Shown here: in pieces, positions 4,329 to 51,837 of the stretch
Numbering within the stretch: the first letter of the stretch is position 1
Layout of the letters: every line of letters begins with the position of its first letter
NCBI RefSeq assembly: GCF_017348835.2
Contig: NZ_CP071375.1
Strand: one strand, 5' to 3'
DNA: 64,000 nt
From: Escherichia coli
GTDB taxonomy: Bacteria > Pseudomonadota > Gammaproteobacteria > Enterobacterales > Enterobacteriaceae
Notes under the pieces: model-generated
The model's input: the letters and a program-made list of their open reading frames with translations, nothing else
Databases searched by the model: none
What the model was told of the DNA's origin: nothing
Made by a program: the position numbers and the translations under genes

Positions 4329-5001
4329 CCGGCACCTCAAGCATGTAACCCACGCCGCGCACGGTTTGAATCAGCTTCGGCTCAAAGTCGTTGTCGATTT
4401 TGCCGCGTAGCCGCTTCACCGCCACATCAATGGCGTTAGTGTCGCTGTCGAAATTCATGTCCCATACCTGCGAGGCGATAAGCGAGCGGGGCAGCACTTC
4501 GCCCTGATGGCGAAGGAAAAACTCCAGCAGAGTAAATTCTTTACTGGTCAGAGTGATGCGCGTGCCGCTGCGGGTGACTTTGCGGCTGACGAGATCGACC
4601 ATCAGATCGGCAACCTGAAACTGACTTTCGATAATCACCGCCGCCCCGCGCCGCAGGAGAGTGCGCACCCGCGCCAGCAGTTCAGCAAAAGCGAATGGTT
4701 TCACCAGGTAGTCATCTGCCCCCAACTCCAGCCCCTTGACGCGATGTTCAATGGTGCCAAGCGCGGTAAGCAACAGAATCGGCATCCCTTTATTGGCGGA
4801 GCGCAACATGCGCACGATATCCCAGCCGTTCACGTCCGGCAGCATAATATCGAGGATTATCAGATCATAATCACCGGTCATCGCCAGATGGTAGCCATTC
4901 AGCCCGTTGTCGGCCAAATCGACCACAAAACCGGCTTCGGTTAACCCTTTGGTCAAGTATTCTCCGGTTTTCTTTTCATCTTCGACAATCAACAGTTTCA
5001 T
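4318..5001 (-). CDS. cusR: CusR, OmpR-family response regulator
   Basis: 227-aa [19 protein letters not shown] receiver domain plus winged-helix C-terminus. Confidence 0.93.
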
Positions 5002-5157: not shown

Positions 5158-6540
5158 ATGTCTCCTTGTAAACTTCTGCCATTTTGTGTGGCCCTTGCGC
5201 TAACCGGTTGTTCACTGGCACCGGATTATCAGCGCCCGGCAATGCCCGTGCCGCAGCAGTTCTCACTCAGCCAGAACGGCCTCGTTAACGCAGCAGATAA
5301 CTACCAGAACGCGGGCTGGCGCACCTTTTTTGTTGATAATCAGGTGAAGACGCTGATTAGCGAGGCGCTGGTGAATAACCGGGATTTGCGCATGGCGACG
5401 CTGAAAGTGCAGGAAGCGCGGGCGCAATATCGTCTGACCGATGCTGACCGCTACCCACAGCTCAATGGCGAGGGCAGCGGCAGCTGGAGCGGCAATCTTA
5501 AAGGCGATTCAGCCACGACGCGGGAGTTTTCTACTGGCCTTAACGCCAGCTTTGACCTCGATTTTTTCGGGCGCTTAAAGAACATGAGCGAAGCCGAGCG
5601 ACAAAATTATTTAGCCACTGAGGAAGCTCAGCGCGCGGTGCATATTCTGCTGGTTTCTAATGTCGCGCAAAGCTATTTCAATCAGCAGCTGGCGTATGCG
5701 CAATTGCAAATAGCCGAAGAAACGCTGCGTAATTATCAGCAGTCATATGCGTTTGTCGAAAAACAACTGTTGACAGGTAGCAGTAATGTTCTGGCGCTGG
5801 AACAGGCTCGCGGGGTGATTGAAAGTACCCGCAGCGACATCGCTAAACGTCAGGGGGAACTGGCGCAGGCGAATAATGCATTGCAACTGTTATTGGGAAG
5901 CTACGGCAAGCTGCCGCAAGCGCAGACAGTAAACGGCGGCAGTCTGCAAAGCGTTAAATTACCGGCGGGCTTGTCGTCGCAAATCTTATTGCAGCGCCCG
6001 GATATTATGGAAGCTGAACATGCGTTAATGGCGGCTAATGCCAATATTGGTGCTGCACGCGCGGCATTTTTCCCGTCTATCAGCCTGACCAGCGGAATAT
6101 CAACCGCCAGCAGCGATCTGTCGTCATTATTTAACGCCAGCAGCGGGATGTGGAATTTTATACCCAAAATTGAGATCCCCATTTTTAATGCCGGACGTAA
6201 CCAGGCCAATCTGGATATCGCCGAAATTCGCCAGCAGCAGTCGGTGGTGAATTATGAACAGAAAATCCAGAACGCCTTTAAAGAAGTGGCAGATGCGCTG
6301 GCATTACGTCAAAGCCTGAACGATCAAATTAGCGCCCAGCAGCGTTATCTGGCATCGCTGCAAATTACTTTGCAACGGGCGCGGGCATTATATCAGCACG
6401 GCGCAGTAAGTTATCTGGAAGTGCTGGATGCCGAGCGTTCTTTATTTGCAACCCGACAAACTTTACTTGACCTGAATTATGCCCGTCAGGTTAACGAAAT
6501 TTCTTTATATACCGCACTTGGTGGCGGTTGGCAGCAATAA
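5158..6540 (+). CDS. cusC: CusC, outer-membrane efflux channel lipoprotein
   Basis: 460-aa ORF with lipobox LTGCS near N-terminus; TolC/OprM-like. Confidence 0.92.
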   Translation: MSPCKLLPFCVALALTGCSLAPDYQRPAMPVPQQFSLSQNGLVNAADNYQNAGWRTFFVDNQVKTLISEALVNNRDLRMATLKVQEARAQYRLTDADRYPQLNGEGSGSWSGNLKGDSATTREFSTGLNASFDLDFFGRLKNMSEAERQNYLATEEAQRAVHILLVSNVAQSYFNQQLAYAQLQIAEETLRNYQQSYAFVEKQLLTGSSNVLALEQARGVIESTRSDIAKRQGELAQANNALQLLLGSYGKLPQAQTVNGGSLQSVKLPAGLSSQILLQRPDIMEAEHALMAANANIGAARAAFFPSISLTSGISTASSDLSSLFNASSGMWNFIPKIEIPIFNAGRNQANLDIAEIRQQQSVVNYEQKIQNAFKEVADALALRQSLNDQISAQQRYLASLQITLQRARALYQHGAVSYLEVLDAERSLFATRQTLLDLNYARQVNEISLYTALGGGWQQ

Positions 6541-36424: not shown

Positions 36425-37586
<1,162 letters not shown>

Positions 37587-37628
37587 ACCCGACAGAATTA
37601 TATGAGATTGCAGGAAAACTCGGTTAAC

Positions 37629-37648
37629 GGAGTGATCGAGTTAACATT
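37629..37648. promoter_or_regulatory. CRP-like site upstream of cstA
   Basis: aGTGA-tcgagt-TaACA matches TGTGA-N6-TCACA at 4 of 5 positions in each half-site; cstA is a carbon-starvation gene. Confidence 0.4.
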
Positions 37649-37766
37649 GTTAAGTTAAATATTGGTTTCAACTCCGATTTACATGGTTGCTGTGTTGTTA
37701 AATTGCGCAAAGATGTTATAGAAACAAAATGTAACATCTCTATGGACACGCACACGGATAACAACT

Positions 37767-39872
37767 ATGAACAAATCAGGGAAATACCTCGTCTGGACAG
37801 TGCTCTCTGTAATGGGAGCATTTGCTCTGGGATACATTGCTTTAAATCGTGGGGAACAGATCAACGCGCTGTGGATTGTGGTGGCGTCGGTCTGTATCTA
37901 TCTGATCGCTTACCGTTTTTATGGCCTGTATATCGCCAAAAATGTGCTGGCGGTTGACCCGACGCGTATGACGCCAGCGGTGCGCCATAACGACGGGCTG
38001 GACTATGTGCCGACGGACAAGAAAGTGCTGTTCGGTCACCATTTTGCGGCCATTGCCGGAGCAGGTCCGTTGGTGGGGCCGGTGCTGGCAGCGCAAATGG
38101 GCTACCTGCCGGGGATGATCTGGCTGCTCGCCGGGGTGGTTCTCGCCGGTGCGGTGCAGGATTTCATGGTGCTGTTTGTTTCTACGCGCCGTGACGGTCG
38201 TTCGCTGGGTGAGCTGGTCAAAGAAGAGATGGGGCCAACCGCCGGGGTGATCGCGCTGGTGGCCTGCTTTATGATCATGGTCATTATCCTTGCAGTACTG
38301 GCGATGATCGTGGTGAAAGCCCTGACTCATAGCCCGTGGGGAACGTATACCGTTGCGTTCACCATTCCGCTGGCGCTGTTTATGGGGATCTACCTGCGCT
38401 ATCTGCGTCCGGGGCGTATTGGTGAAGTGTCGGTCATCGGTCTGGTATTCCTGATTTTCGCCATTATCTCTGGCGGCTGGGTGGCAGAAAGTCCGACCTG
38501 GGCACCGTACTTTGACTTTACCGGCGTGCAGCTGACCTGGATGCTGGTGGGTTACGGTTTTGTGGCGGCGGTGCTGCCGGTGTGGTTGCTGCTGGCTCCG
38601 CGTGACTACCTCTCTACCTTCCTGAAAATCGGGACGATCGTCGGTCTGGCGGTAGGCATTTTGATTATGCGCCCGACGCTGACCATGCCTGCACTAACTA
38701 AATTTGTTGATGGTACTGGCCCGGTATGGACCGGTAACCTGTTCCCGTTCCTGTTTATCACCATCGCCTGTGGCGCGGTGTCAGGCTTCCATGCGCTGAT
38801 CTCTTCCGGCACCACGCCGAAGATGCTGGCGAACGAAGGGCAGGCGTGCTTTATCGGCTACGGTGGAATGTTAATGGAATCCTTCGTGGCGATTATGGCG
38901 CTGGTTTCCGCCTGTATCATCGATCCGGGCGTTTACTTTGCCATGAACAGCCCAATGGCGGTGCTGGCTCCGGCAGGGACGGCGGATGTGGTCGCTTCTG
39001 CCGCGCAGGTGGTGAGTAGCTGGGGCTTTGCGATTACCCCGGATACGCTAAACCAGATTGCCAGCGAAGTGGGTGAACAGTCGATCATTTCCCGTGCGGG
39101 CGGTGCGCCGACGCTGGCGGTGGGGATGGCCTACATTCTGCACGGCGCGCTGGGCGGCATGATGGATGTGGCGTTCTGGTATCACTTCGCCATTTTGTTT
39201 GAAGCATTGTTTATTCTGACGGCGGTGGATGCAGGTACGCGTGCTGCGCGCTTTATGTTGCAGGATCTGCTGGGCGTGGTTTCTCCGGGCCTGAAACGGA
39301 CCGATTCACTGCCTGCTAACCTGCTGGCAACGGCGCTGTGCGTGCTAGCGTGGGGCTACTTCCTGCATCAGGGGGGGGTCGACCCGCTGGGTGGTATTAA
39401 CACTCTGTGGCCGCTGTTTGGTATTGCCAACCAGATGCTGGCAGGGATGGCGCTGATGCTCTGTGCCGTGGTGCTGTTCAAAATGAAACGTCAACGTTAC
39501 GCCTGGGTGGCGCTGGTACCAACGGCCTGGCTGCTGATTTGTACCCTGACCGCTGGCTGGCAGAAAGCGTTTAGCCCGGATGCGAAAGTCGGCTTCCTGG
39601 CCATTGCTAACAAGTTCCAGGCAATGATCGACAGCGGCAATATTCCGTCGCAGTATACTGAGTCACAGCTGGCGCAACTGGTGTTCAACAACCGTCTGGA
39701 TGCCGGGTTAACCATCTTCTTTATGGTGGTCGTGGTGGTTCTGGCACTGTTCTCGATTAAGACGGCACTTGCGGCATTGAAAGAGCCGAAGCCAACGGCG
39801 AAAGAAACGCCGTATGAGCCGATGCCGGAAAATGTTGAGGAGATCGTAGCGCAGGCGAAAGGCGCGCACTAA
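37767..39872 (+). CDS. cstA: CstA, carbon starvation protein / peptide-pyruvate transporter
   Basis: 701-aa polytopic membrane ORF; recognised by recall. Confidence 0.93.
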   Translation: MNKSGKYLVWTVLSVMGAFALGYIALNRGEQINALWIVVASVCIYLIAYRFYGLYIAKNVLAVDPTRMTPAVRHNDGLDYVPTDKKVLFGHHFAAIAGAGPLVGPVLAAQMGYLPGMIWLLAGVVLAGAVQDFMVLFVSTRRDGRSLGELVKEEMGPTAGVIALVACFMIMVIILAVLAMIVVKALTHSPWGTYTVAFTIPLALFMGIYLRYLRPGRIGEVSVIGLVFLIFAIISGGWVAESPTWAPYFDFTGVQLTWMLVGYGFVAAVLPVWLLLAPRDYLSTFLKIGTIVGLAVGILIMRPTLTMPALTKFVDGTGPVWTGNLFPFLFITIACGAVSGFHALISSGTTPKMLANEGQACFIGYGGMLMESFVAIMALVSACIIDPGVYFAMNSPMAVLAPAGTADVVASAAQVVSSWGFAITPDTLNQIASEVGEQSIISRAGGAPTLAVGMAYILHGALGGMMDVAFWYHFAILFEALFILTAVDAGTRAARFMLQDLLGVVSPGLKRTDSLPANLLATALCVLAWGYFLHQGGVDPLGGINTLWPLFGIANQMLAGMALMLCAVVLFKMKRQRYAWVALVPTAWLLICTLTAGWQKAFSPDAKVGFLAIANKFQAMIDSGNIPSQYTESQLAQLVFNNRLDAGLTIFFMVVVVVLALFSIKTALAALKEPKPTAKETPYEPMPENVEEIVAQAKGAH

Positions 39873-39879
39873 AGTCAGA

Positions 39880-40020
39880 GTGAGGGGGATGTTGGCGAAT
39901 GTTGGCATAGTGCCGAGGGTTCCCCCTCACTCTAACCATCTCCCCGATGGGGCGAGGGGACTGACCGAGCGCGTTGATAGCATTTGTAGGCCGGATAAAG
40001 CGTTCACGCCGCATCCGGCA
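39880..40020. repeat. Palindromic intergenic repeats (REP-like) between cstA and ybdD
   Basis: AGAGTGAGGGGGA ... TCCCCCTCACTCT inverted repeat at about 39880-39935, then REP unit GTAGGCCGGATAAAGCGTTCACGCCGCATCCGGCA. Confidence 0.75.
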
Positions 40021-40052
40021 CTCTTTCAGCAACATGGTTAGCGGAGGCCAAG

Positions 40053-40250
40053 ATGTTTGATTCACTGGCAAAAGCCGGAAAATATTTAGGTCAGGCGGCG
40101 AAGCTGATGATTGGTATGCCTGATTACGACAACTATGTCGAACATATGCGGGTTAACCATCCCGATCAAACGCCGATGACCTACGAAGAGTTTTTCCGTG
40201 AGCGGCAGGACGCGCGCTACGGTGGAAAAGGCGGCGCGCGCTGCTGCTAA
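40053..40250 (+). CDS. ybdD: YbdD, small DUF466-family protein co-located with cstA
   Basis: 65-aa ORF; recognised by recall. Confidence 0.85.
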
Positions 40251-41347
40251 ATTTGCACGTCAGGCTTTAACGATTCCACTTTTTCGAACGCTGCACGCAA
40301 CGTATCTGGTGTCAGCGTGACTGGCAGGTAATGAATGGACTCCACCGGGCGCAAGGTGTGGGCAATCACTTTGTCGATCTCCGCCTGATTATTGATATCC
40401 ACTTCCAGCTCCGCCAGCGTAGTCGGCAGATGAAAACGCTGATACGCTCCAGTTAATTGCGCCAGAACATCATCCTGACCCAGCAAGGCGCTTTGCACCA
40501 GAATTCCGTAGGCGACTTTGGTGCCGTGAAGAAACTTCTCGGTTTGCGGCAGCACGGTCAGACCGTTATGCACGGCGTGAGCCGCCGCCACACGCGTAAA
40601 ACGATCGCCCAGACCACCGACCATTCCACCTCCGGCGATAATGGCATCCACCACATCGCAAAATGATTGCGTTAACTGCTGATTTTGCTGATCGCTCAGC
40701 GCCTGTTCGCTACTGTTTAACAAGACGTCGCGAATGGCCTGCGCATTATTGATCCCCAGCCGCACGGTTAGCGGCAACGTTTCTGGTTGCGGAGCCAGCA
40801 CCACCGCTTCATACCATTTCGCCAGCGTGTCACCGATCCCCGCCAGCAGATATTGTTGCGGCGCATTGAGGATAATCTCTGGTTCCACCAGCACCATAAA
40901 ATTGGCGTCGTCGAAAATCTCATAATGCAGCGCCTGTCCGGCATCGTTATACCAGACGGAGAGCGGTGTCCAGGCGGCGCAGGTGGCGGCGATCGTCGGA
41001 GCGGCAACAAATGGCAGACCGAGACGGCGGGCGAGGGCTTTCGCGGTGTCGAGTAGTGCGCCGCCGCCGACGCCAATCACCACGCTGCGATCGTCACCGG
41101 ACTCAGCCGCCAGTTGTTGTACATCGCTTTCGCTGCAATGACCGCGAAACAAAATATGCTTTGCCCCCGGCAGTTCAAACGCTGGCGGAAGTTTGGTTTG
41201 CGCCGCAGCAATGGCGCGTTCGCCGTAGATCCACACCGCGCGAGAAAGTTGTTCATCAGTGAAAAAATCGTGCAGATGATTGAAACTTCCTGGATGTGAA
41301 AAGTAGTTAGCCGGGCCGACGACCACGCGGATAGGATTGTGAGGCAT
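40247..41347 (-). CDS. ybdH: YbdH, iron-containing (group III) alcohol/hydroxycarboxylate dehydrogenase
   Basis: 366-aa ORF (exact start not verified); glycerol-dehydrogenase-like motifs. Confidence 0.88.
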
Positions 41348-41455
41348 GTTGTGTTGTCCTTATTGTTTTATTTAGACATCTAAACGTCTTGATTGCCAAA
41401 TACTAGCATCGTGTTATAGTGCCTTCAACACGCAACTTCGTCAGGTACAATAAAA

Positions 41456-42616
41456 ATGACAAATAACCCTCTGATTCCACAAAGCAAACTTCCACAACTT
41501 GGCACCACTATTTTCACCCAGATGAGCGCGCTGGCGCAGCAACACCAGGCGATTAACCTGTCGCAAGGCTTTCCTGATTTTGATGGTCCGCGCTATTTAC
41601 AGGAGCGGCTGGCGTACCACGTTGCCCAAGGGGCAAACCAATACGCGCCCATGACCGGCGTGCAGGCCTTGCGCGAGGCGATTGCTCAGAAAACGGAACG
41701 TTTGTATGGCTATCAACCAGATGCCGATAGCGATATCACCGTAACGGCAGGGGCGACGGAGGCGTTATACGCGGCGATTACCGCATTGGTGCGCAATGGC
41801 GATGAAGTGATTTGTTTTGATCCCAGCTATGACAGTTACGCCCCCGCCATCGCGCTTTCTGGGGGAATAGTGAAGCGTATGGCACTGCAACCACCGCATT
41901 TTCGCGTTGACTGGCAGGAATTTGCCGCATTGTTAAGCGAGCGCACCAGACTGGTGATCCTCAACACTCCGCATAACCCCAGTGCAACTGTCTGGCAGCA
42001 GGCTGATTTCGCCGCTTTGTGGCAGGCGATCGCCGGGCACGAGATTTTTGTCATTAGCGATGAAGTCTACGAGCACATCAACTTTTCACAACAGGGCCAT
42101 GCCAGTGTGCTGGCGCATCCGCAGCTGCGTGAGCGGGCAGTGGCGGTTTCTTCATTTGGCAAGACCTATCATATGACCGGCTGGAAAGTGGGTTATTGTG
42201 TTGCGCCAGCGCCCATCAGCGCCGAAATTCGCAAGGTACATCAGTATCTGACCTTTTCGGTGAATACCCCGGCACAGCTGGCGCTTGCTGATATGCTACG
42301 TGCAGAACCTGAGCATTATCTTGCGTTACCGGACTTTTATCGCCAGAAGCGCGATATTCTGGTGAATGCTTTAAATGAAAGCCGGATGGAGATTTTACCG
42401 TGTGAAGGTACATACTTTTTGCTGGTGGATTACAGCGCCGTATCTACCCTGGATGATGTTGAGTTTTGCCAGTGGCTGACGCAGGAGCACGGCGTAGCGG
42501 CGATTCCGCTATCGGTGTTTTGCGCCGATCCCTTCCCTCATAAACTGATTCGTCTCTGTTTTGCCAAGAAGGAATCGACGTTGCTGGCAGCAGCTGAACG
42601 CCTGCGCCAGCTTTAG
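41456..42616 (+). CDS. ybdL: YbdL, PLP-dependent methionine aminotransferase
   Basis: 386-aa ORF; aminotransferase class I features including SFGKT (PLP lysine). Confidence 0.9.
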   Translation: MTNNPLIPQSKLPQLGTTIFTQMSALAQQHQAINLSQGFPDFDGPRYLQERLAYHVAQGANQYAPMTGVQALREAIAQKTERLYGYQPDADSDITVTAGATEALYAAITALVRNGDEVICFDPSYDSYAPAIALSGGIVKRMALQPPHFRVDWQEFAALLSERTRLVILNTPHNPSATVWQQADFAALWQAIAGHEIFVISDEVYEHINFSQQGHASVLAHPQLRERAVAVSSFGKTYHMTGWKVGYCVAPAPISAEIRKVHQYLTFSVNTPAQLALADMLRAEPEHYLALPDFYRQKRDILVNALNESRMEILPCEGTYFLLVDYSAVSTLDDVEFCQWLTQEHGVAAIPLSVFCADPFPHKLIRLCFAKKESTLLAAAERLRQL

Positions 42617-43246
42617 CTATTTAACCGTCCAGGCGCGGGAATATTGACGGTCGGCAAACAACTCTTGCAGGCCGTTAATTTGCTTCAGGCGCAGCACTTC
42701 GTCGCTGTCCATTCCCAGCTCTTTGCCAATTTTATTATCGTCCCATCCCAACTGGCTAAGTTCACGGACGATTTCCGACATGGCGGTGATTTGATGGCGT
42801 CCACGAGCGCGATTATGACGAATAGTCGCGGCGATGCGTTGATTACGCGTACCTTCCAGACAGGTCACCGGCAAATAACCTTTTAAGCGTAATTGTAATG
42901 ATGATGAGCCTTTACCAATTTCATGGCGGTGAAAACCATCCACGATTTCCAGGGCATTTTTATCCGTATGCGTGACCACAATGGGTTGGGTAAAACCATC
43001 TATTTCAATGGATTTTTTCAGCAGTTTTTTTTCGGGTGGTGCCACGTTGTTTGGGTTGTAATCATTAGGCATAAGTTGGCTGTTTTTAACCCACAGAACG
43101 CAATCCACTGGCTCTTCACGAAAGGGGCTAACCTGATGGATCGCCATGCGGATTTCATTAATCGCTTTGATGCGATCATCTTCCGGCAAGCTGGCGAGAA
43201 ATTGCGTTAAATCCTGCGTTAATCGTTGTTGCATAGTATCCCCCAT
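42617..43246 (-). CDS. ybdM: YbdM, ParB-like nuclease-domain protein (IbrB-like)
   Basis: 209-aa ORF; DGFHRH and RHNRARG motifs resemble ParB/sulfiredoxin boxes; 28-nt overlap with ybdN. Confidence 0.85.
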   Translation of the reverse strand: MGDTMQQRLTQDLTQFLASLPEDDRIKAINEIRMAIHQVSPFREEPVDCVLWVKNSQLMPNDYNPNNVAPPEKKLLKKSIEIDGFTQPIVVTHTDKNALEIVDGFHRHEIGKGSSSLQLRLKGYLPVTCLEGTRNQRIAATIRHNRARGRHQITAMSEIVRELSQLGWDDNKIGKELGMDSDEVLRLKQINGLQELFADRQYSRAWTVK

Positions 43247-44439
43247 TCCTGACGTTTTCCTTTTATCCGTTCGTTATAACGCTGATAGTTCTTCGCTTTC
43301 GTAGGACTAAATGATAATGCCCGACACCAGTAATCGTTATTGAGTAAAACTTTGCATATCCGCCGCCAGGAAGGGATATCTTTCGCGCCAATGTCCCCTT
43401 GCTGGGTTTGTGGAACCTCGATGCCTTTTTTCTGATACCAGTGCAAATAAATGGCGATTTTATTGCGGTAATGCTCAGCTGTTTTTTCCGGCATGCTATT
43501 GAGCAGCAATAATGCATATTCTTGCCAGTCTAAATGTTCTGGCTTGAGGATTTTCCGATGCCCATAGAAATGATTGTCATGTCCGGCGTAAATGCCGCCA
43601 CTTTTTACCCCGCTGACTCGTGCGCACATAGCAGCCCAGCGATCCGGTTCGATAACGTGATAGAGCCATAATCCTTGTCGTTGCTCCGGGCCAAAAGGTT
43701 CGCAAATTCGCATATGACGCAGAGGAACGCCTGCCTGATACATTAGGTTATACAGTGGGTTGCAGAGACTTTGATGATTTGCATACCAGGTCCAGATATC
43801 AGCCACTTTCCAGTCGTAAATGGGATAAATGTACCAGCTATGACCGCCTGGTGCGGCCGTAGTCCAGGGTTTATCGTCGGCAAAACGTTGTTTATTTAAA
43901 CTGGCGATGGCGACAAAACGGTTGTAGGACTCATCCGCACGGATGCCGATCATCATCGCCGCCGGACGTTTTTGTGAAAACCATTCGGCAAACTCACGTA
44001 CAAATTGTTCGAAGGTCATGCCTGGCTGGTAAAAGGAGAAAAAGTCAGGATCGGTTATCGCATCTTGCGGGGGCTGACGCACCCATTCGACATCAGGTTC
44101 CCAGCACTGCCATTCGGGTTGGTATTGTGAAAGGGAATTTTGCGTCGTAAGCGGGAGCGCAACCCAGTAAAACTCTTCGATGACATCGGTGTACAACTCG
44201 CGCAGGGACTGAACATAGTTAATGGTGCAAGAGAATTGCGCCTCCCAGTCGATAAACAAAACGCAGATTTTTTTGCCCATTTGTCGAGCAAGTTCGGCTG
44301 TCAGATGCAGCATTAAACCAGAGTCTTTGCCGCCAGAAAATGAGACACAAACGCGGGGTAGGGTGTTGAGTGTCCAGGTAATACGCTCTCGTGCAGCTTC
44401 CAGAATATTGAGCGGAAGAGGAATTTTATAAATAGACAT
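43219..44439 (-). CDS. ybdN: YbdN, PAPS-reductase-like PP-loop ATP pyrophosphatase family protein (IbrA-like)
   Basis: 406-aa ORF; PP-loop SFSGGKDS at residues 33-40. Confidence 0.85.
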   Translation of the reverse strand: MSIYKIPLPLNILEAARERITWTLNTLPRVCVSFSGGKDSGLMLHLTAELARQMGKKICVLFIDWEAQFSCTINYVQSLRELYTDVIEEFYWVALPLTTQNSLSQYQPEWQCWEPDVEWVRQPPQDAITDPDFFSFYQPGMTFEQFVREFAEWFSQKRPAAMMIGIRADESYNRFVAIASLNKQRFADDKPWTTAAPGGHSWYIYPIYDWKVADIWTWYANHQSLCNPLYNLMYQAGVPLRHMRICEPFGPEQRQGLWLYHVIEPDRWAAMCARVSGVKSGGIYAGHDNHFYGHRKILKPEHLDWQEYALLLLNSMPEKTAEHYRNKIAIYLHWYQKKGIEVPQTQQGDIGAKDIPSWRRICKVLLNNDYWCRALSFSPTKAKNYQRYNERIKGKRQEWGILCNND

Positions 44440-44585
44440 CTGAAGACGCTCTCTGAACGTTACAGGGTGATCAGTGAGATAAGACTGTTAATTATAAAGT
44501 AAACACTGAAAAGCAGAGTGTTTTATTTTTCATTCGCGCTGTGAATAAATAGGTGAAAGTTATAGTAGCTGTCTGAAGTTATATA

Positions 44586-45488
44586 TCAAAAACACTCATT
44601 TAGACGGTCAATAAATCGTGAGAACACCAGATTGTTTAAAGAAGATTTATTATAGGAAATGTAAAGCTTTATTGAAGGTAACGGATGTTCTAGTTTTATC
44701 TCTTTTAAATTAAGAAAATCACGGTGGGAGTTATAAAGTTCATAGGGGACTATTCCCAGTAAATCTGTAACTGCAATGCTATTAATGATTGTCAGCAAAG
44801 AGGAACCACGAAATGAAATTTTGCGATTCATAAATCTCTCGTCTATTTCCATTTGAATATCATCAACCCCTGCTGATTTAGATATTAATTGGGTGAACTC
44901 TTCTGCCATAATTTGTTCATAAGTGCTATTGTCAGTAATTCGTGGATGCCTATTACTACAAATTAGAGTATTGCGAATCGTATGCAATGGCATGCAAATG
45001 ACGGAACGGCTGATCACTGGCATTTGGGTGATCACCAGATCGGCTTTGCGGTGAACCAACAGTTCTTCAGCATTCTCTGCTGACATGAGGATATCATGGC
45101 ACTCAATCTCGACAGAGGAATCTTGCCGTAGGCAGCGGATCAGCATACTATTATTAGAGCAAGAAATGAGCTGAGGGCCGTGAATAATAAAGTTTTTCTT
45201 TAGTTCGGACTTATTGACTATATTAATTGTTTGTTCAAGGCCTCTGAGATTTTTCTCAAGATGGTGATGCAGATTTAACCCTGTTGTCGTCGGCGCGATA
45301 CCTTTTCCTGAGCGAATGAATAAAGGGTCATTAAATTGCGCACGTAAGCGTTGTAACGACTGGCTCACGGCTGATGGGGTGATATATAGTGATTCAGCAG
45401 CTTTGCTAATGCTTAAATGCTGGTAAATACACTCAAATATGACAAGAAGATTTAAGTCGAACTTTTTCAAGTCGTAGAGATTGGTCAT
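44586..45488 (-). CDS. ybdO: YbdO, LysR-family transcriptional regulator
   Basis: 300-aa ORF; N-terminal LysR HTH (LSISKAAESLYITPSAVSQSLQRLR); markedly AT-rich coding sequence. Confidence 0.88.
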   Translation of the reverse strand: MTNLYDLKKFDLNLLVIFECIYQHLSISKAAESLYITPSAVSQSLQRLRAQFNDPLFIRSGKGIAPTTTGLNLHHHLEKNLRGLEQTINIVNKSELKKNFIIHGPQLISCSNNSMLIRCLRQDSSVEIECHDILMSAENAEELLVHRKADLVITQMPVISRSVICMPLHTIRNTLICSNRHPRITDNSTYEQIMAEEFTQLISKSAGVDDIQMEIDERFMNRKISFRGSSLLTIINSIAVTDLLGIVPYELYNSHRDFLNLKEIKLEHPLPSIKLYISYNKSSLNNLVFSRFIDRLNECF

Positions 45489-45696
45489 ACACTACTCCGG
45501 TTATATTTTTCTTCCATGATATATTCACTTAATCAATGTTTTTTGCGTATATATTTTTATTGGTTATGTTTTTTTGCTTAACTCAGGATTAAGTTTTTCT
45601 AAAATAGCACAGCCACTTAGGGCAGAGCGAGCAATTCATGCTTTTTTAGGATGGTTGAAAAGCAGGGATATAGTTCAACCATCCATGAATTACCTT

Positions 45697-46443
45697 TTAT
45701 TTATTTCCCATAATGATATTAAGCGTTTTCTGATCGGGCAACCCCACGGCCTGTTGCAGCGTATTTTCCTTACTCATGTAATAGATAGCCGGCGTGACAT
45801 TTGCCCCCAGATCGTCCATCAGTTTCTCATTGTCACTTAACACTTTCATTTGCTCTGTACTTACGTTTGCAGGCACGTTTAGCTTAAGCTTGCCACCAGA
45901 GGCTTCATATTCTTGCCAGGTTTTTGCGGGATCTTTGGAGGCAAGAATTGCCGCGGCTGTCGCCGGACTTTCTGGTTTGATAACCCCAACCAACAATGTT
46001 CTCAACTGTACTTTGCCAGAATCTACCCACGGGCGCGCCTGCTGCCAGAACTGTTTACAATATGGGCAGAACGGATCGGCGAAGACGTAGACAATGACCG
46101 GCGCGTCTTTTTTACCGTCGAGGAGCCAGTGGGATTGTTCCATCCGTTGCCACATTTCGCGTCCGGCTGGTGCGTAAATTTCTTTTTCGATAAGTGTGTT
46201 ACTCAGGTTTTCACCTTTCTCGTTGTACATGTAACCAGAGATAGCGTGCTTACCATCTGGAGTCAGGTAGATGGTGACGCCCATATCCTGATACTTTCCG
46301 AGATAACCTTTCATTCCTCCGGGGGCATCGAACGTTTTGATGATTGTAATGCCCTGTTTTTCAATCGCTTTTACTGGAGCAGGAAGTTCCTCTGCGAAGG
46401 CGATTGCAGGAAGCAGAGCCAGTAAAAGTATCTTTTTTAACAT
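45697..46443 (-). CDS. dsbG: DsbG, periplasmic disulfide isomerase
   Basis: ORF 45697-46503; start taken at [17 protein letters not shown] (signal peptide) giving 248 aa; CPYC active site. Confidence 0.92.
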
Positions 46444-46726
46444 TAATTTGTCCTTTTCAGTCAGTGCAAAAGTCGAGTAAAAGGCATAACCTATCACTGT
46501 CATAGGTAAGAGCTTAGATCAGGTGATTGCCCTTTGTTTATGAGGGTGTTGTAATCCATGTCGTTGTTGCATTTGTAAGGGCAACACCTCAGCCTGCAGG
46601 CAGGCGCTGAAGATACCAAAGGGTAGTTCAGATTACACGGTCACCTGGAAAGGGGGCCATTTTACTTTTTATCGCCGCTGGCGGTGCAAAGTTCACAAAG
46701 TTGTCTTACGAAGGTTGTAAGGTAAA

Positions 46727-46814
46727 ACTTATCGATTTGATAATGGAAACGCATTAGCCGAATCGGCAAAAATTGGTTACCTTACATCTCATCGAAAACA
46801 CGGAGGAAGTATAG
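46727..46814. promoter_or_regulatory. ahpC promoter / OxyR-binding region (approximate)
   Basis: Position upstream of ahpC in the divergent dsbG-ahpC region, with GGAGGAAG SD at 46801-46808; OxyR assignment from prior knowledge of the ahpC promoter, motif not derived here. Confidence 0.45.
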
Positions 46815-47378
46815 ATGTCCTTGATTAACACCAAAATTAAACCTTTTAAAAACCAGGCATTCAAAAACGGCGAATTCATCGAAATCACCGAAAAAGATAC
46901 CGAAGGCCGCTGGAGCGTCTTCTTCTTCTACCCGGCTGACTTTACTTTCGTATGCCCGACCGAACTGGGTGACGTTGCTGACCACTACGCAGAACTGCAG
47001 AAACTGGGCGTAGACGTATACGCAGTATCTACCGATACTCACTTCACCCACAAAGCATGGCACAGCAGCTCTGAAACCATCGCTAAAATCAAATATGCGA
47101 TGATCGGCGACCCGACTGGCGCCCTGACCCGTAACTTCGACAACATGCGTGAAGATGAAGGTCTGGCTGACCGTGCGACCTTCGTTGTTGACCCGCAGGG
47201 TATCATCCAGGCAATCGAAGTTACCGCTGAAGGCATTGGCCGTGACGCGTCTGACCTGCTGCGTAAAATCAAAGCAGCACAGTACGTAGCTTCTCACCCA
47301 GGTGAAGTTTGCCCGGCTAAATGGAAAGAAGGTGAAGCAACTCTGGCTCCGTCTCTGGACCTGGTTGGTAAAATCTAA
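46815..47378 (+). CDS. ahpC: AhpC, alkyl hydroperoxide reductase peroxiredoxin
   Basis: 187-aa ORF; peroxidatic Cys motif FTFVCPTE; strong SD; highly expressed-type codon usage. Confidence 0.97.
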
Positions 47379-47517
47379 ATTTCCTTCGTCTTTCACGCCA
47401 TAGCGGCGTTGGCGTCGCCCGTTCACCCCGGTCACTTACTTATGTAAGCTCCCGGGGATTCACAGGCTAGCCGCCTTGCTCTGACGCGAAATACTTCGGA
47501 AATTCACCTAATTCTTC

Positions 47518-47540
47518 GGGTGCTGCGGCACCCGATTTTC
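47518..47540 (+). terminator. Hairpin plus U-rich tract in the ahpC-ahpF spacer (partial terminator/attenuator)
   Basis: GGGTGC-TGCG-GCACCC followed by GATTTTCTTCC, read directly. Confidence 0.5.
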
Positions 47541-47622
47541 TTCCCCGCACCATGATGCAAGCTGCATCCAGGTAGCCGCAGAGGCCGCTTGCATGATGAT
47601 GTTTAAAGCCCAGGAGATAAAC

Positions 47623-49188
47623 ATGCTCGACACAAATATGAAAACTCAACTCAAGGCTTACCTTGAGAAATTGACCAAGCCTGTTGAGTTAATTGCCACG
47701 CTGGATGACAGCGCTAAATCGGCAGAAATCAAGGAACTGTTGGCTGAAATCGCAGAACTGTCAGACAAAGTCACCTTTAAAGAAGATAACAGCTTGCCGG
47801 TGCGTAAGCCGTCTTTCCTGATCACCAACCCAGGTTCCAACCAGGGGCCACGTTTTGCAGGCTCCCCGCTGGGCCACGAGTTCACCTCGCTGGTACTGGC
47901 GTTACTGTGGACCGGTGGTCATCCGTCGAAAGAAGCGCAGTCTCTGCTGGAGCAGATTCGCCATATTGACGGTGATTTTGAATTCGAAACCTATTACTCG
48001 CTCTCTTGCCATAACTGCCCGGACGTGGTGCAGGCGCTGAACCTGATGAGCGTATTGAACCCGCGCATCAAGCACACTGCAATTGACGGCGGCACCTTCC
48101 AGAACGAGATCACTGATCGTAACGTGATGGGCGTTCCGGCAGTGTTCGTGAACGGGAAAGAGTTTGGTCAGGGCCGCATGACGTTGACTGAAATCGTTGC
48201 CAAAATTGATACGGGCGCGGAAAAACGTGCGGCAGAAGAGCTGAACAAGCGTGATGCTTATGACGTATTAATCGTTGGTTCCGGCCCGGCGGGTGCAGCG
48301 GCAGCAATTTACTCCGCACGTAAAGGCATCCGTACCGGTCTGATGGGCGAACGTTTTGGTGGTCAGATCCTCGATACCGTTGATATCGAAAACTACATTT
48401 CTGTACCGAAGACTGAAGGGCAGAAGTTGGCAGGCGCACTGAAAGTTCACGTTGATGAATACGACGTTGATGTGATCGACAGCCAGAGCGCCAGCAAACT
48501 GATCCCGGCAGCGGTTGAAGGTGGTCTACACCAGATTGAAACAGCTTCTGGCGCGGTACTGAAAGCACGCAGCATTATCGTGGCGACCGGTGCAAAATGG
48601 CGCAACATGAATGTTCCGGGCGAAGATCAGTATCGCACCAAAGGCGTGACCTACTGCCCGCACTGCGACGGTCCGCTGTTTAAAGGCAAACGCGTAGCGG
48701 TTATCGGCGGCGGTAACTCCGGCGTGGAAGCGGCAATCGACCTGGCGGGTATCGTTGAGCACGTAACGCTGCTGGAATTTGCGCCAGAAATGAAAGCCGA
48801 CCAGGTTCTGCAGGACAAACTGCGCAGCCTGAAAAACGTCGACATCATTCTGAATGCGCAAACTACGGAAGTGAAAGGCGACGGCAGCAAAGTCGTTGGT
48901 CTGGAATATCGTGATCGTGTCAGCGGCGATATTCACAACATCGAACTGGCCGGTATTTTCGTCCAGATTGGTCTGCTGCCGAACACCAACTGGCTGGAAG
49001 GCGCAGTCGAACGTAACCGCATGGGTGAGATTATCATTGATGCGAAATGCGAAACCAACGTCAAAGGCGTATTCGCAGCGGGTGACTGTACGACGGTTCC
49101 GTACAAGCAGATCATCATCGCCACTGGCGAAGGTGCCAAAGCCTCTCTGAGTGCTTTTGACTACCTGATTCGCACCAAAACTGCATAA
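47623..49188 (+). CDS. ahpF: AhpF, alkyl hydroperoxide reductase flavoprotein subunit
   Basis: ORF 47593-49188; start taken at [13 protein letters not shown] giving 521 aa; FAD motif [12 protein letters not shown], redox CPHCDG. Confidence 0.95.
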
Positions 49189-49737: not shown

Positions 49738-49957
49738 AACCCTTTCTCCCTGTTAATCATGAACAAATCATTCGCCATGATTATAATATTTATCCCTGAT
49801 ATTTGTCTGGTTCTTTTTCCTTACGAACGGTTTCTGTGATGAATATATTCTCACTGAACACCAGGAATTCTCCCAAAACCTGCGGTACCGCCCGTTTTCC
49901 CGCTGTGATAGCTACCCTTAAAGACTGACTCTTTTTTGAACTGTCTCTGGAGGTTGC

Positions 49958-51196
49958 ATGAAAGCATTGACTTATCACGGCCCACATCACGTTCAGGTAG
50001 AAAATGTTCCCGATCCGGGCATTGAACAGGCAGATGATATTATTCTGCGTATAACGGCAACGGCGATCTGTGGCTCTGACCTCCATCTTTATCGAGGCAA
50101 AATACCCCAGGTTAAACATGGCGATATTTTTGGTCATGAATTTATGGGGGAAGTCGTTGAAACCGGAAAGGACGTAAAAAATTTGCAAAAAGGCGACCGG
50201 GTGGTAATTCCGTTCGTCATTGCTTGTGGCGACTGTTTTTTCTGTCGATTACAGCAATATGCCGCCTGCGAAAATACCAATGCGGGTAAAGGCGCTGCGC
50301 TCAATAAAAAACAGATACCAGCACCAGCGGCATTGTTTGGTTATAGTCACCTGTATGGTGGCGTTCCTGGCGGGCAGGCGGAATATGTCCGCGTCCCTAA
50401 AGGGAATGTGGGGCCGTTTAAAGTACCGCCTTTGCTTTCAGATGATAAAGCCCTTTTCCTTTCTGATATTCTGCCAACGGCATGGCAGGCAGCAAAAAAT
50501 GCGCAGATCCAACAAGGTTCAAGCGTTGCAGTCTATGGTGTTGGTCCTGTGGGATTGTTGACAATCGCCTGTGCACGGTTGCTCGGTGCGGAACAGATTT
50601 TTGTTGTTGATCATCATCCCTACCGCTTGCATTTCGCCGCCGACCGCTACGGCGCGATCCCGATTAATTTTGATGAAGACAGCGATCCGGCACAGTCAAT
50701 TATTGAACAAACGGCAGGTCACCGGGGCGTGGATGCAGTAATAGACGCCGTCGGTTTTGAAGCGAAAGGCAGCACCACGGAAACGATGCTGACTAACCTG
50801 AAACTGGAGGGCAGCAGCGGTAAAGCGTTGCGCCAGTGTATTGCGGCGGTCAGGCGTGGCGGCATTGTTAGCGTACCGGGCGTCTACGCTGGATTTATTC
50901 ACGGTTTCCTGTTTGGCGACGCCTTTGATAAAGGGTTGACGTTTAAAATGGGACAGACCCACGTTCACGCATGGCTGGGAGAATTATTACCGTTAATTGA
51001 GAAAGGATTACTGAAACCAGAAGAAATTGTTACCCACTATATGCCGTTTGAAGAGGCCGCCCGGGGATATGAGATTTTCGAAAAACGTGAAGAGGAGTGC
51101 CGTAAGGTGATTCTGGTACCCGGTGCACAAAGCGCAGAGGCGGCGCAGAAGGCGGTTTCAGGTCTGGTGAATGCGATGCCGGGGGGAACAATATGA
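49958..51196 (+). CDS. ybdR: YbdR, Zn-dependent alcohol dehydrogenase family oxidoreductase
   Basis: 412-aa ORF; zinc-ADH motifs GHEFMGEV and CGDCFFC. Confidence 0.9.
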
Positions 51197-51199
51197 TCG

Positions 51200-51289
51200 T
51201 CAGGAGTGGTTTTCGAGGTAAAGGACAGCCATGACGATAATCGCCGCCATAATCAGAAATCCTATCAGGATGTAAAATGCTTCTGCCAT
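51200..51289 (-). CDS. Candidate 29-aa single-TM small protein, MAEAFYILIGFLIMAAIIVMAVLYLENHS (hypothetical)
   Basis: ATG at 51289 to TGA at 51200; 21-residue uninterrupted hydrophobic core flanked by acidic/polar ends; weak SD-like GGAA upstream; no homology evidence available. Confidence 0.35.
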   Translation of the reverse strand: MAEAFYILIGFLIMAAIIVMAVLYLENHS

Positions 51290-51426
51290 GGTTATTTCCA
51301 CAAACGAAACGGAATAATTTTGCAGCAAAAGTGAACAGTGAGAACCAGGAAAAATTGCTGATTTTGCGTAAAGAGGATGCGAGTGCATCCTCTGGGCAAA
51401 GCGAGTTATCGCTTGTGCAGATGGGA

Positions 51427-51837
51427 TTAAAGCAGGTAGTCGCCAGCAGCTTCTGGCTGGTATTCGAGTTCCAGCACTTCAAGGTGGGTTGCAACGCCGC
51501 CCGGAAGTTCCCAGTGAATGGAATCGCCAACGCGCAGCCCCAGCAGTGCGGCACCTACCGGAGCCATAACGGAAAGCTGAGTATTGCTATCGGTCATTTT
51601 TGCCGGATACACCAGCGTGCGCACACGCACTTCGCCATCGCTAAGATTGCGGAATTTAACCCGGCTGTTCATTGTCACCACGTCGTGTGGCATCTCTTCT
51701 GGCGAACACATTTGGGCGCGATCCAACTCTGCGTTTAACGCGTCGGCGATTGGCAAACCAGCATAGGCGGGCTGCTCCAGCAGAATATCGATGCGTTCGG
51801 CATCCAGGTCGTTAATGATGATAGTTGGTCTGGACAT
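51427..51837 (-). CDS. rnk: Rnk, regulator of nucleoside diphosphate kinase (GreA/GreB-like)
   Basis: 136-aa ORF; recognised by recall. Confidence 0.9.

Follow-up and report, generated by a model that had tools for sequence, protein, structure and literature searches.

The ybdNM locus comprises two overlapping genes and a LysR-type regulator gene

We analysed a 64,000-nucleotide stretch of Escherichia coli DNA (contig NZ_CP071375.1, assembly GCF_017348835.2), hereafter the window, in which positions 42617–45488 carry three intact open reading frames (ORFs) on the minus strand: ybdM, ybdN and ybdO, also called citR. The ybdN gene (43219–44439) encodes a 406-residue IbrA-type enzyme that displays a PP-loop ATP-pyrophosphatase domain of the phosphoadenosine phosphosulfate (PAPS) reductase fold (residues 30–234), followed by a helical DUF3440 domain (residues 237–406). 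The product of ybdM (42617–43246) is a 209-residue, IbrB-type ParB-like protein in which an N-terminal helical hairpin precedes a ParB/sulfiredoxin (Srx) N-domain and a helix-turn-helix (HTH), and for which no C-terminal dimerisation domain is modelled. The third gene, citR (44586–45488), encodes a 300-residue LysR-type repressor of ybdNM and is AT-rich and bound by H-NS.

With the annotated ybdM start, ybdN and ybdM overlap by 28 nucleotides (43219–43246, minus strand), a figure given by the original prediction, made from the sequence of the window, and borne out by the ORF listing. A second in-frame ATG at 43234 would shorten the overlap to 16 nucleotides; it has a GGGGGA Shine-Dalgarno-like run 4 nucleotides 5′ of it, a better one than that of the annotated start. 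The overlap is 16 nucleotides in the Klebsiella chromosomal copy and in plasmid copies and 28 nucleotides in the Salmonella copy; whichever start is used, it indicates that ybdN and ybdM are translationally coupled. The motifs quoted in the original prediction are present exactly as given, namely the PP-loop SFSGGKDS of YbdN (44320–44343, minus strand, residues 33–40), whose SGGKDS portion occurs only once in a six-frame translation of the whole window, and DGFHRH and RHNRARG of YbdM. A further segment of YbdN, MRICEPFG (43690–43713, minus strand, residues 243–250), lies at the boundary between its two domains and holds the invariant R244 and the mostly conserved C246. No RNA element was found inside the operon by an Rfam scan.

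The GC content of citR is 0.385, as compared with 0.537 for ybdL, 0.471 for dsbG, 0.475 for ybdN, 0.471 for ybdM and 0.523 for the whole window. The AT-rich island that had been proposed here thus shrinks to citR and its two flanking intergenic regions, the only strongly AT-rich parts of the locus, while ybdN and ybdM are not markedly AT-rich.

YbdN is a PP-loop ATP-pyrophosphatase family member with a DUF3440 domain

Profile and fold searches supported the assignments first made from motifs, that is, PP-loop/PAPS reductase with DUF3440 for YbdN and ParB-like for YbdM. YbdN matched the Pfam families PF01507 (PAPS_reduct, 1.2e-13) and PF11922 (DUF3440, 5.1e-23) and, over its full length, the PHROGs family phrog_2302 (260 bits). 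A structure search with the YbdN model confirmed the PAPS-reductase/PP-loop fold, the closest structures being adenosine phosphosulfate (APS) and PAPS reductases, and its neighbours in the AlphaFold Database (AFDB) bear the name immunoglobulin-binding regulator or IbrA. Comparison of the sequence with the PDB returned marginal matches only, to a tail protein and to FAD synthase. In an alignment of 94 YbdN-family sequences, with identities down to 33%, SGGKDS and about 25 further residues are invariant; the invariant positions include S35, G37, K38, D39 and S40 of the PP-loop as well as D64, E66, R121, E170, S171, R174, D209, D214 and R244. Since the PP-loop is of the canonical ATP-type SGGKDS form and is invariant, cleavage of ATP to AMP and pyrophosphate (PPi), with adenylation of an oxygen, is the safest assignment for this protein.

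The RefSeq product name of YbdN is "phosphoadenosine phosphosulfate reductase", and the name raises the question whether YbdN truly serves sulfur assimilation, as a PAPS/APS reductase or as the product of a "cysH" auxiliary metabolic gene, with YbdM being incidental. The closeness of the fold to APS/PAPS reductases would suit such a role, as would a virome study that included the DUF3440 clade in its count of viral cysH auxiliary metabolic genes (bioRxiv 10.1101/2021.01.05.425418). The cys regulon also responds in a citR deletion, rising 4- to 7-fold together with ybdNM (PMC9068703); this is a correlation only, and a weak hint of sulfur or ATP-sulfurylase-related chemistry. However, YbdN falls below every curated cut-off for CysH (34.8 bits against 254.2 for TIGR02057, 34 against 154 for NF002537 and 24.8 against 165.1 for TIGR00434) and for CysD (18–25 bits against cut-offs of 195–413). 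Its loop is the ATP-type SGGKDS rather than the degenerate loop of CysH, and the C-terminal catalytic cysteine motif of CysH, ECGLH, is absent from YbdN, in which the nearest candidate is C246 within RICEP. YbdN further differs from CysH, CysD and FAD synthase in its extra DUF3440 domain of 170 residues and in its obligatory linkage to a ParB-like partner, and E. coli already has cysH and cysD. We rejected YbdN as a real CysH or CysD on the curated thresholds and the motifs, and we regard the sulfur-assimilation explanation as a whole as extremely improbable.

YbdM has the N-domain and helix-turn-helix of ParB-type clamps

YbdM gave a weak match to Pfam ParB_N (2.9e-4) and a much more extensive one to phrog_2159 of PHROGs (5e-69, 234 bits), and its RefSeq name is "IbrB-like domain-containing protein". 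Together, the PHROG matches, the RefSeq naming and the AFDB neighbours uphold the resemblance to IbrA/IbrB that had been pointed out for the pair. With the AlphaFold2 (AF2) model of YbdM, whose predicted local distance difference test score (pLDDT) is 91.7, Foldseek returned Noc, ParB-CDP/CTPgammaS, KorB and Spo0J at E values of 1e-7 to 1e-5 over 150–160 columns, which span the N-domain and the HTH; lower in the list stand the ParB/Srx-fold enzymes SbnI and SerK, and sulfiredoxin. The PDB sequence search gave a marginal match only, to Noc. YbdM thus shares the fold of the ParB N-domain and HTH with the CTP-dependent clamps ParB, Noc and KorB, its best structural matches, but it reads DGFHR where ParB has GERRxR, it carries the extra N-terminal helical hairpin, and its model ends just past the HTH with no C-terminal domain modelled. 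It also falls below the curated cut-offs for ParB (TIGR00180, 15.9 bits against 58.45) and Noc (TIGR04285, 20.3 bits against 315).

Four blocks are conserved among 52 YbdM homologues: NxYNPNxVAPPE, DGFHR, RHNRARG and a C-terminal LGMDxDExLRLKQ helix. N66, S79, G104 and N145 are invariant, and at least 90% conservation is seen for N61, N64, P65 and E72 in the first block, for D103, H106 and R107 in DGFHRH, and for A147 and G149 in RHNRARG. By motif reading rather than by a computed alignment, we take the first three blocks as putative counterparts of ParB boxes I–III, which form the nucleotide pocket. In the window, NDYNPNNVAPPE (43031–43066, minus strand, YbdM residues 61–72) would correspond to box I, DGFHRH (42923–42940, minus strand, residues 103–108) to box II or to the GCHR motif of Srx, and RHNRARG (42800–42820, minus strand, residues 143–149) to box III. 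The pocket counterparts G104, R107 and N145 are conserved in the family, and nucleotide binding by YbdM is predicted.

ybdNM belongs to the core genome and is under purifying selection

The locus (42617–45488) was found by megablast in 5422 of 5426 complete E. coli genomes, nearly always as a single chromosomal copy. One Salmonella and one K. pneumoniae contig share the gene order ahpC-dsbG-LysR-ybdN-ybdM, with ybdL convergent to it, and orthologues with identities of 70–85% are present in, among others, Citrobacter, Salmonella, Enterobacter, Klebsiella, Yokenella and Trabulsiella. Comparison of the window with the phylogroup-B2 strain Seattle 1946 gave ratios of nonsynonymous to synonymous substitution rates (dN/dS) of 0.049 for ybdN and 0.048 for ybdM. 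Strong purifying selection and core presence together indicate that ybdN and ybdM are maintained, functional genes.

Core presence and synteny also led us to reject a recently acquired island, and with it the recent horizontal acquisition that the original prediction had read from the base composition. A uniform single-copy core context had been named in advance as speaking against a modifying or conflict-related module; the locus is indeed core and mostly single-copy, so that this objection is partly borne out. In the annotated E. coli, Salmonella and Klebsiella loci the neighbours are citR, dsbG, ahpCF, ybdL and hcxA. A ParB + DUF3440 pair, lmo1309/lmo1310, is also reported among the core genes of Listeria monocytogenes, where TASmania labels it a toxin-antitoxin pair by guilt-by-association, that is, by adjacency (PMC7020466); this suggests that an IbrAB-type pair became fixed independently in a second bacterial lineage.

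At its downstream end ybdM (minus strand) converges with ybdL (plus strand) at 42616/42617, with 0 bases between the two stop codons and no terminator-like site between the genes, and ybdL-ybdM appears among published convergent "excludons" (PMC12288877). The genes that come after ybdL in Klebsiella carry Hydrolase and ARD Pfam domains and resemble mtnC and mtnD of methionine salvage.

CitR represses ybdNM, and H-NS silences citR

The citR product matches the NCBIfam model NF047710 (CitR) with 458.7 bits, above the equivalog cut-off of 400. In a citR deletion ybdN rises by log2 5.5 (about 45-fold) and ybdM by log2 2.5, and a chromatin immunoprecipitation (ChIP-exo) peak of CitR lies at or upstream of citR-ybdNM (PMC9068703). 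The joint rise agrees with the co-expression as an operon that had been expected from the gene overlap. In total 86 genes change in the deletion, including cit, cys and flagellar genes, yet the only ChIP peak confirmed by expression is that at citR-ybdNM (PMC9068703). H-NS binds and represses ybdO in K-12, SE11 and SE15, where its binding region has undergone diversification (Higashi et al. 2016, PMC4720273), so the H-NS silencing suggested for the locus has been demonstrated experimentally for ybdO. YbdM protein increases 29-fold upon CTX-M-15 expression (PMC8764527).

The citR-ybdN intergenic region (44440–44585, minus strand) is 146 nucleotides long and contains a perfect TATAAT at 44491–44496, a candidate ybdNM promoter element that is kept in the divergent B2 haplotype described below. 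Upstream of ybdN there is also an ATTC-N7-GAAT dyad (44532–44546, minus strand) that fits the T-N11-A pattern of LysR-type regulators. Its arms are conserved between the two E. coli haplotypes while the spacer differs (ATTCACAGCGCGAAT versus ATTCATTGTGTGAAT), in surrounding DNA that is about 70–80% identical, and the dyad may be the CitR operator; both proposals are drawn from the sequence. A scan for consensus promoters and terminators returned no more sites than in shuffled sequence.

Identity of the locus to the window is bimodal in E. coli by megablast, with 3632 genomes at 95% or above and 1764 at 80–90%. The divergence maps to 44290–45790, that is, to citR and both its intergenic flanks, which are 70–84% identical between haplotypes, while ybdNM and the outer flanks are 93–99.6% identical, with values of 94–98% for the adjoining ybdNM and dsbG. 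Against the B2 strain Seattle 1946 the synonymous divergence (dS) of citR is saturated (2.3), with a dN/dS of 0.03. The two deeply diverged citR haplotypes match the H-NS-linked diversification of ybdO that Higashi et al. 2016 already published, and any horizontal origin of the citR region is ancient.

Paralogous pairs on plasmids and islands accompany virulence genes

Beyond the core locus there is a paralogous pair, on plasmids and as an accessory chromosomal element, whose proteins are 58–59% identical to YbdN/YbdM. A YbdN relative is present in 855 plasmid records, led by Klebsiella, Escherichia, Ralstonia and Shigella. One plasmid copy stands beside iroBCDN on a Klebsiella IncF virulence plasmid, one beside iutA-iucABCD on a Salmonella plasmid, and further copies lie beside ehxBD and an autotransporter gene and, in Pantoea, beside a metal ABC transporter. 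The label "ParB partition protein" that plasmid IbrB genes carry is likely to be misleading.

The accessory paralogue occurs in 2131 of the 5426 E. coli genomes (39%), is mostly chromosomal and reaches up to four copies. An ST131 island copy has a gene for a TonB-dependent receptor nearby and lies about 8 kb from a tRNA-Asn gene; in an O26 island a PerC-family regulator gene comes directly next and iuc genes are 4 kb away; another island copy is accompanied by PerC, a YadA-like adhesin and F17 fimbriae, and yet another accessory copy sits in a region rich in insertion sequences (IS) with remnants of a type VI secretion system (T6SS).

The PerC-family gene follows the IbrB-like gene directly in two loci (L095, 10869–11138; L098, 9905–10174), and within a few kb of these two copies there are genes for a YadA-like (Eib-type) adhesin, F17 fimbriae or aerobactin. 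Iron-uptake genes recur near several copies (L001, L002, L092, L094 and L095), as iroBCDN, iutA-iuc, TonB-dependent receptors or a metal ABC transporter. The window has its own ent cluster (entA/entH at about 36600–37700) about 5 kb from ybdNM. We rejected a specific link to siderophore loci, as the ent adjacency is lost in Klebsiella and other copies lie beside adhesin or haemolysin genes or T6SS remnants; the iron-uptake neighbours are probably general island cargo.

IbrA/IbrB, the immunoglobulin-binding regulator of E. coli ECOR-9, has the same two-gene architecture, with a PAPS_reduct + DUF3440 gene overlapping a ParB-like + HTH gene, and ybdNM agrees with it in sequence and in architecture. 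The two differ in that ybdNM is a fixed, syntenic core copy with its own LysR repressor, whereas IbrAB proper is on a mobile island. IbrA and IbrB together reportedly activate prophage eib genes, a result attributed to Sandt et al. 2002; it is the sole known phenotype of the family and concerns IbrAB, not YbdNM.

This phenotype is what would be expected if the pair co-activated transcription or acted as a counter-silencer without marking DNA covalently, with YbdM/IbrB as a nucleoside triphosphate (NTP)-switched clamp, similar to KorB or VirB, that opens H-NS-silenced promoters, and with YbdN/IbrA supplying or consuming the nucleotide ligand or loading the clamp. The best structural matches of YbdM include KorB, and the accessory paralogues reside in IS-rich islands and on virulence plasmids next to genes for adhesins, autotransporters, haemolysin and siderophores, two of them with a PerC-family regulator directly downstream. 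A change in 86 genes on citR deletion with a single confirmed ChIP peak would also fit YbdNM as the downstream actor (PMC9068703). On the other hand, such a regulator leaves the fully conserved canonical ATP-pyrophosphatase site without a role, YbdM apparently has no counterpart of the dimerisation domain at the C terminus of clamp-forming ParB proteins, and the phage contexts described below, with replication and recombination genes and often an X domain, a GNAT-like protein or a methyltransferase, look enzymatic. On balance we consider a purely regulatory pair unlikely.

Phage-borne pairs lie among replication and recombination genes

YbdN relatives were detected by tblastn in 224 phage records, from phages of Flavobacterium, Mycobacterium, Streptococcus, Arthrobacter, Bacillus and other hosts, and full-length PHROG families exist for both proteins (phrog_2302 and phrog_2159). 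In a set of 80 IMG/VR viral loci, 79 hold a complete IbrA-type ORF, and 72 of these 79 have an IbrB-type ORF next to it in the same orientation, downstream in 25 and upstream in 47. Pairing of the ybdN-ybdM type is far beyond chance, and the fact that adjacency is kept while order varies argues for a functional or physical partnership.

The company of these pairs was surveyed with one representative for each of 20 viral neighbour families. For 17 of the 20 there were matches to PHROG families that serve the replication, recombination or modification of DNA or the metabolism of nucleotides, including helicases, replication initiators, RecE/Cas4/ExoVIII-type exonucleases, Sak4, SSB, NinG/Rap, a Holliday-junction resolvase, DnaB, a ParB-methyltransferase fusion and dUTPase. 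In Pseudoalteromonas phage XCL1123 the pair closes the early region, ahead of the portal gene; the copy in Arthrobacter phage Laroye has ParB-like genes on one side and a methyltransferase gene on the other, shortly before the terminase genes; and in Streptococcus phage CHPC1230 it follows the lysis cassette.

A recurrent additional component, which we call the X domain, comprises about 135 residues with the motif NRxAWLGQAxCC. It is found in 56 of the 79 viral loci (across L017–L088), in 28 as a free gene, for example at 5601–6002 of L029, and in 28 fused to the C terminus of IbrB, for example at 4814–5974 of L042. The X domain has no match in Pfam, PHROG, NCBIfam or PDB; the more than 1700 database clusters that contain it are unnamed or labelled "hypothetical protein", and it is absent from the window. 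Other IbrB-type domains are fused to a GNAT-like domain (P0179) or to a domain with a DPPW motif that we read as a putative N6/N4 DNA methyltransferase (P0269), and free small GNAT-like genes occur in 5 viral loci, one of them with a weak Pfam GNAT match. Tandem IbrB domains and Cys-rich inserts of about 200 residues complete the architectures. The fusion partners are, at least putatively, nucleic-acid enzymes, which suggests that IbrB serves to target a catalytic partner to DNA or to load it.

In two IbrB homologues, P0135 and P0140, the conserved DG[YF]/TQPIV motif is interrupted by an apparent intein of about 260 residues, which begins with Cys, ends with HN followed by Thr and includes a LAGLIDADG-like motif (LAGFLDGEG). 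The Cys-rich inserts, in P0214, P0218 and P0252, are at nearly the same place.

The "phosphoadenosine phosphosulfate reductase" annotations in phage records H27–H65 include members of the DUF3440 clade that are IbrA-type and paired with a ParB-like gene. The sulfur-assimilation reading of the phage DUF3440 "cysH" genes is probably wrong, and these genes are more likely to encode IbrA-type nucleic-acid enzymes than sulfur auxiliary metabolic functions.

YbdNM resembles known ParB-assisted DNA-modification systems in architecture only

In the Dnd system of DNA phosphorothioation, the ParB-superfamily gene dndB stands beside dndC, the gene of a PAPS-reductase-fold PP-loop ATP pyrophosphatase, as ybdM stands beside ybdN; in the Dpd system of 7-deazaguanine DNA modification the ParB-like NTPase DpdB assists a DNA-modifying enzyme (PMC12839542). 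DndB and DpdB thus offer a precedent for ParB-superfamily partners of DNA-modifying enzymes (PMC12839542). In YbdN, however, the C-terminal domain is DUF3440, and the catalytic partner in this pair is a PP-loop protein of the PAPS-reductase clade. SspB and SspD of the Ssp phosphorothioation system show the arrangement of DndB and DndC, and the likeness of DndB and SspB to YbdM extends to a DGxHR-type motif.

Genes for DndA/IscS, DndD, DndE and DndFGH were not found in the cluster in the E. coli, Salmonella and Klebsiella loci, there are no BREX or Ssp genes near ybdNM, and no ORF for DpdA, of the tRNA-guanine transglycosylase (TGT) family, or DpdC was seen at 40000–48500 or in the annotated E. 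coli loci. As YbdNM both fails the curated thresholds and lacks the partner genes of Dnd, Ssp, Dpd and BREX, it follows the logic of DndB-DndC and DpdB without being a member of these systems. The Dnd/Ssp/Dpd connection drawn in the original prediction is thus limited to architecture.

The ParB + PAPS-reductase architecture also recalls Dnd, Ssp and BREX type 4 as defence systems, and an anti-phage system or a toxin-antitoxin pair would accord with the TASmania flag on lmo1309/lmo1310 (PMC7020466) and with one candidate defence cluster in which a PAPS reductase is paired with a nucleoid-associated protein. Yet PADLOC-DB v2 returned only weak, partial matches, for YbdN to DndC (21.8 bits) and BrxP (18.5 bits, 72 profile positions) with no Ssp model, and for YbdM only to a Type II methyltransferase model (16.2 bits). 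Moreover, ybdNM is a syntenic core locus rather than part of a defence island, no effector accompanies it, and the pair is carried by phages themselves, within replication modules. The 45-fold derepression of ybdN is tolerated (PMC9068703) and a ybdM deletion is viable (PMC8764527), on which grounds we rejected a toxin-antitoxin pair; defence or toxin-antitoxin function taken together is very improbable. The description of the locus as conflict-related, for which restriction or defence neighbours are missing, consequently rests on its phage and plasmid relatives and does not hold for the chromosomal copy itself.

A ParB-guided, ATP-dependent DNA-modification module as a tentative function

We read ybdNM as an IbrAB-type module that has been domesticated in the core genome and acts on nucleic acid, DNA being the likeliest target. 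ParB-type HTH, conserved putative nucleotide pocket and phage replication-gene context together make DNA the most plausible substrate. CysD adenylates sulfate, FAD synthase the phosphate of FMN, and DndC and SspD presumably target the DNA backbone. Because members of the PAPS-reductase-fold clade with an intact PP-loop adenylate an oxygen of sulfate or phosphate, a phosphate is the most plausible acceptor. Our preferred explanation for YbdNM, which we put forward tentatively and at somewhat less than an even chance, is a ParB-guided, ATP-dependent module for the covalent modification of DNA.

In this mechanism YbdM would bind DNA, probably in an NTP-gated manner, and would position or activate YbdN. 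The PP-loop of YbdN would split ATP into AMP and PPi and so adenylate a target oxygen, most plausibly on a phosphate, by analogy with CysD, FAD synthase and DndC/SspD. A nucleophile would then displace AMP and leave a covalent mark, a step in which the mostly conserved C246 may take part. Phage and plasmid modules would mark their own DNA during replication, while for island and chromosomal copies the mark, or the complex itself, would alter the expression of silenced genes, as IbrAB does for eib. The E. coli operon would normally be off, being repressed by CitR and by H-NS acting over citR. We infer the DNA substrate, the adenylation of a phosphate, and the mark with its consequence; what is observed here or published is the set of domain and fold assignments, the conserved residues, the linkage of the genes, their genomic settings and their regulation.

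Several observations weigh against DNA modification by YbdNM. Full-text literature searches returned no biochemical activity for YbdN/YbdM, IbrA/IbrB or DUF3440, in agreement with the original prediction that none had been assigned, and no modification is reported for YbdNM in that literature; YbdM was "completely uncharacterized" according to the authors of a 2022 paper (PMC8764527). The only genetic phenotype of the family is altered expression, which needs no covalent DNA mark. In the E. coli, Salmonella and Klebsiella chromosomes the locus is without a restriction partner, a sulfur donor or another accessory enzyme. YbdN scores 22.2 bits against the DndC model TIGR03183, whose cut-off is 290.4. 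No cysteine is invariant among the 94 YbdN-family sequences: position 246 is Cys in 84, Asp in 9 and Ala in 1, and C372 is kept in 87, C112 in 66 and C362 in 64. Conservation of C246 and C372 at 89–93%, short of invariance, argues against an obligatory Dnd-like sulfur chemistry while not excluding it. Finally, the effects of ybdM alone are small: its overexpression lowers the growth rate by 10% and its deletion changes fitness by 1–2% (PMC8764527).

The substrate could instead be RNA (tRNA) or protein, with YbdN working in the manner of the PP-loop enzymes TilS and TtuA, which modify tRNA, or of Cap9, which conjugates a base to protein, and YbdM as the adaptor or the target; we consider this improbable. 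Extending the DNA-modification reading to the whole family, IbrAB-type pairs could be, beside Dnd/Ssp and Dpd, a third and separate kind of ParB-guided PP-loop system for DNA modification, one that writes a new covalent mark. In phages the X domain or a GNAT-like protein would elaborate this mark, with which phages, plasmids and islands would evade restriction or xenogeneic silencing, and a repressor-controlled copy would have been fixed as an epigenetic switch in the core genome of Enterobacteriaceae and apparently in that of Listeria. This broader proposal is possible but doubtful.

The gene family, its regulator and its H-NS silencing are already published whereas its biochemistry is not, which makes the locus a known unknown rather than a discovery; that the pair exists, and its likely general nature, will not surprise a specialist. 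New here are the core-plus-accessory distribution in E. coli, the obligatory pairing with variable order, the phage replication-module context, the IbrB architectures with an X domain, a GNAT-like or methyltransferase-like domain or an intein, the finding that no cysteine is invariant and the candidate CitR operator. The ybdNM operon is among the remaining enzyme-like operons of unknown function in K-12, is under purifying selection and is conserved across Enterobacteriaceae. If a DNA mark is indeed written, it would represent new epigenetic or anti-restriction chemistry, tractable in the best-understood model organism, in which the citR deletion that already derepresses ybdN about 45-fold would aid its study.

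Other features near the locus

Two further observations concern the surroundings of the operon. Between dsbG and ahpC, at 46577–46670 (plus strand), the sequence matches the Rfam model of STnc70, an enterobacterial small RNA, with 44.1 bits against a gathering score of 40. The segment at about 49760–51488 is 97–100% identical to K-12 and has no counterpart in the B2 strain Seattle 1946, whose annotation is without ybdR between uspG and yldA; short dips in identity at 39801–40040 and 47290–47539 look like intergenic indels.

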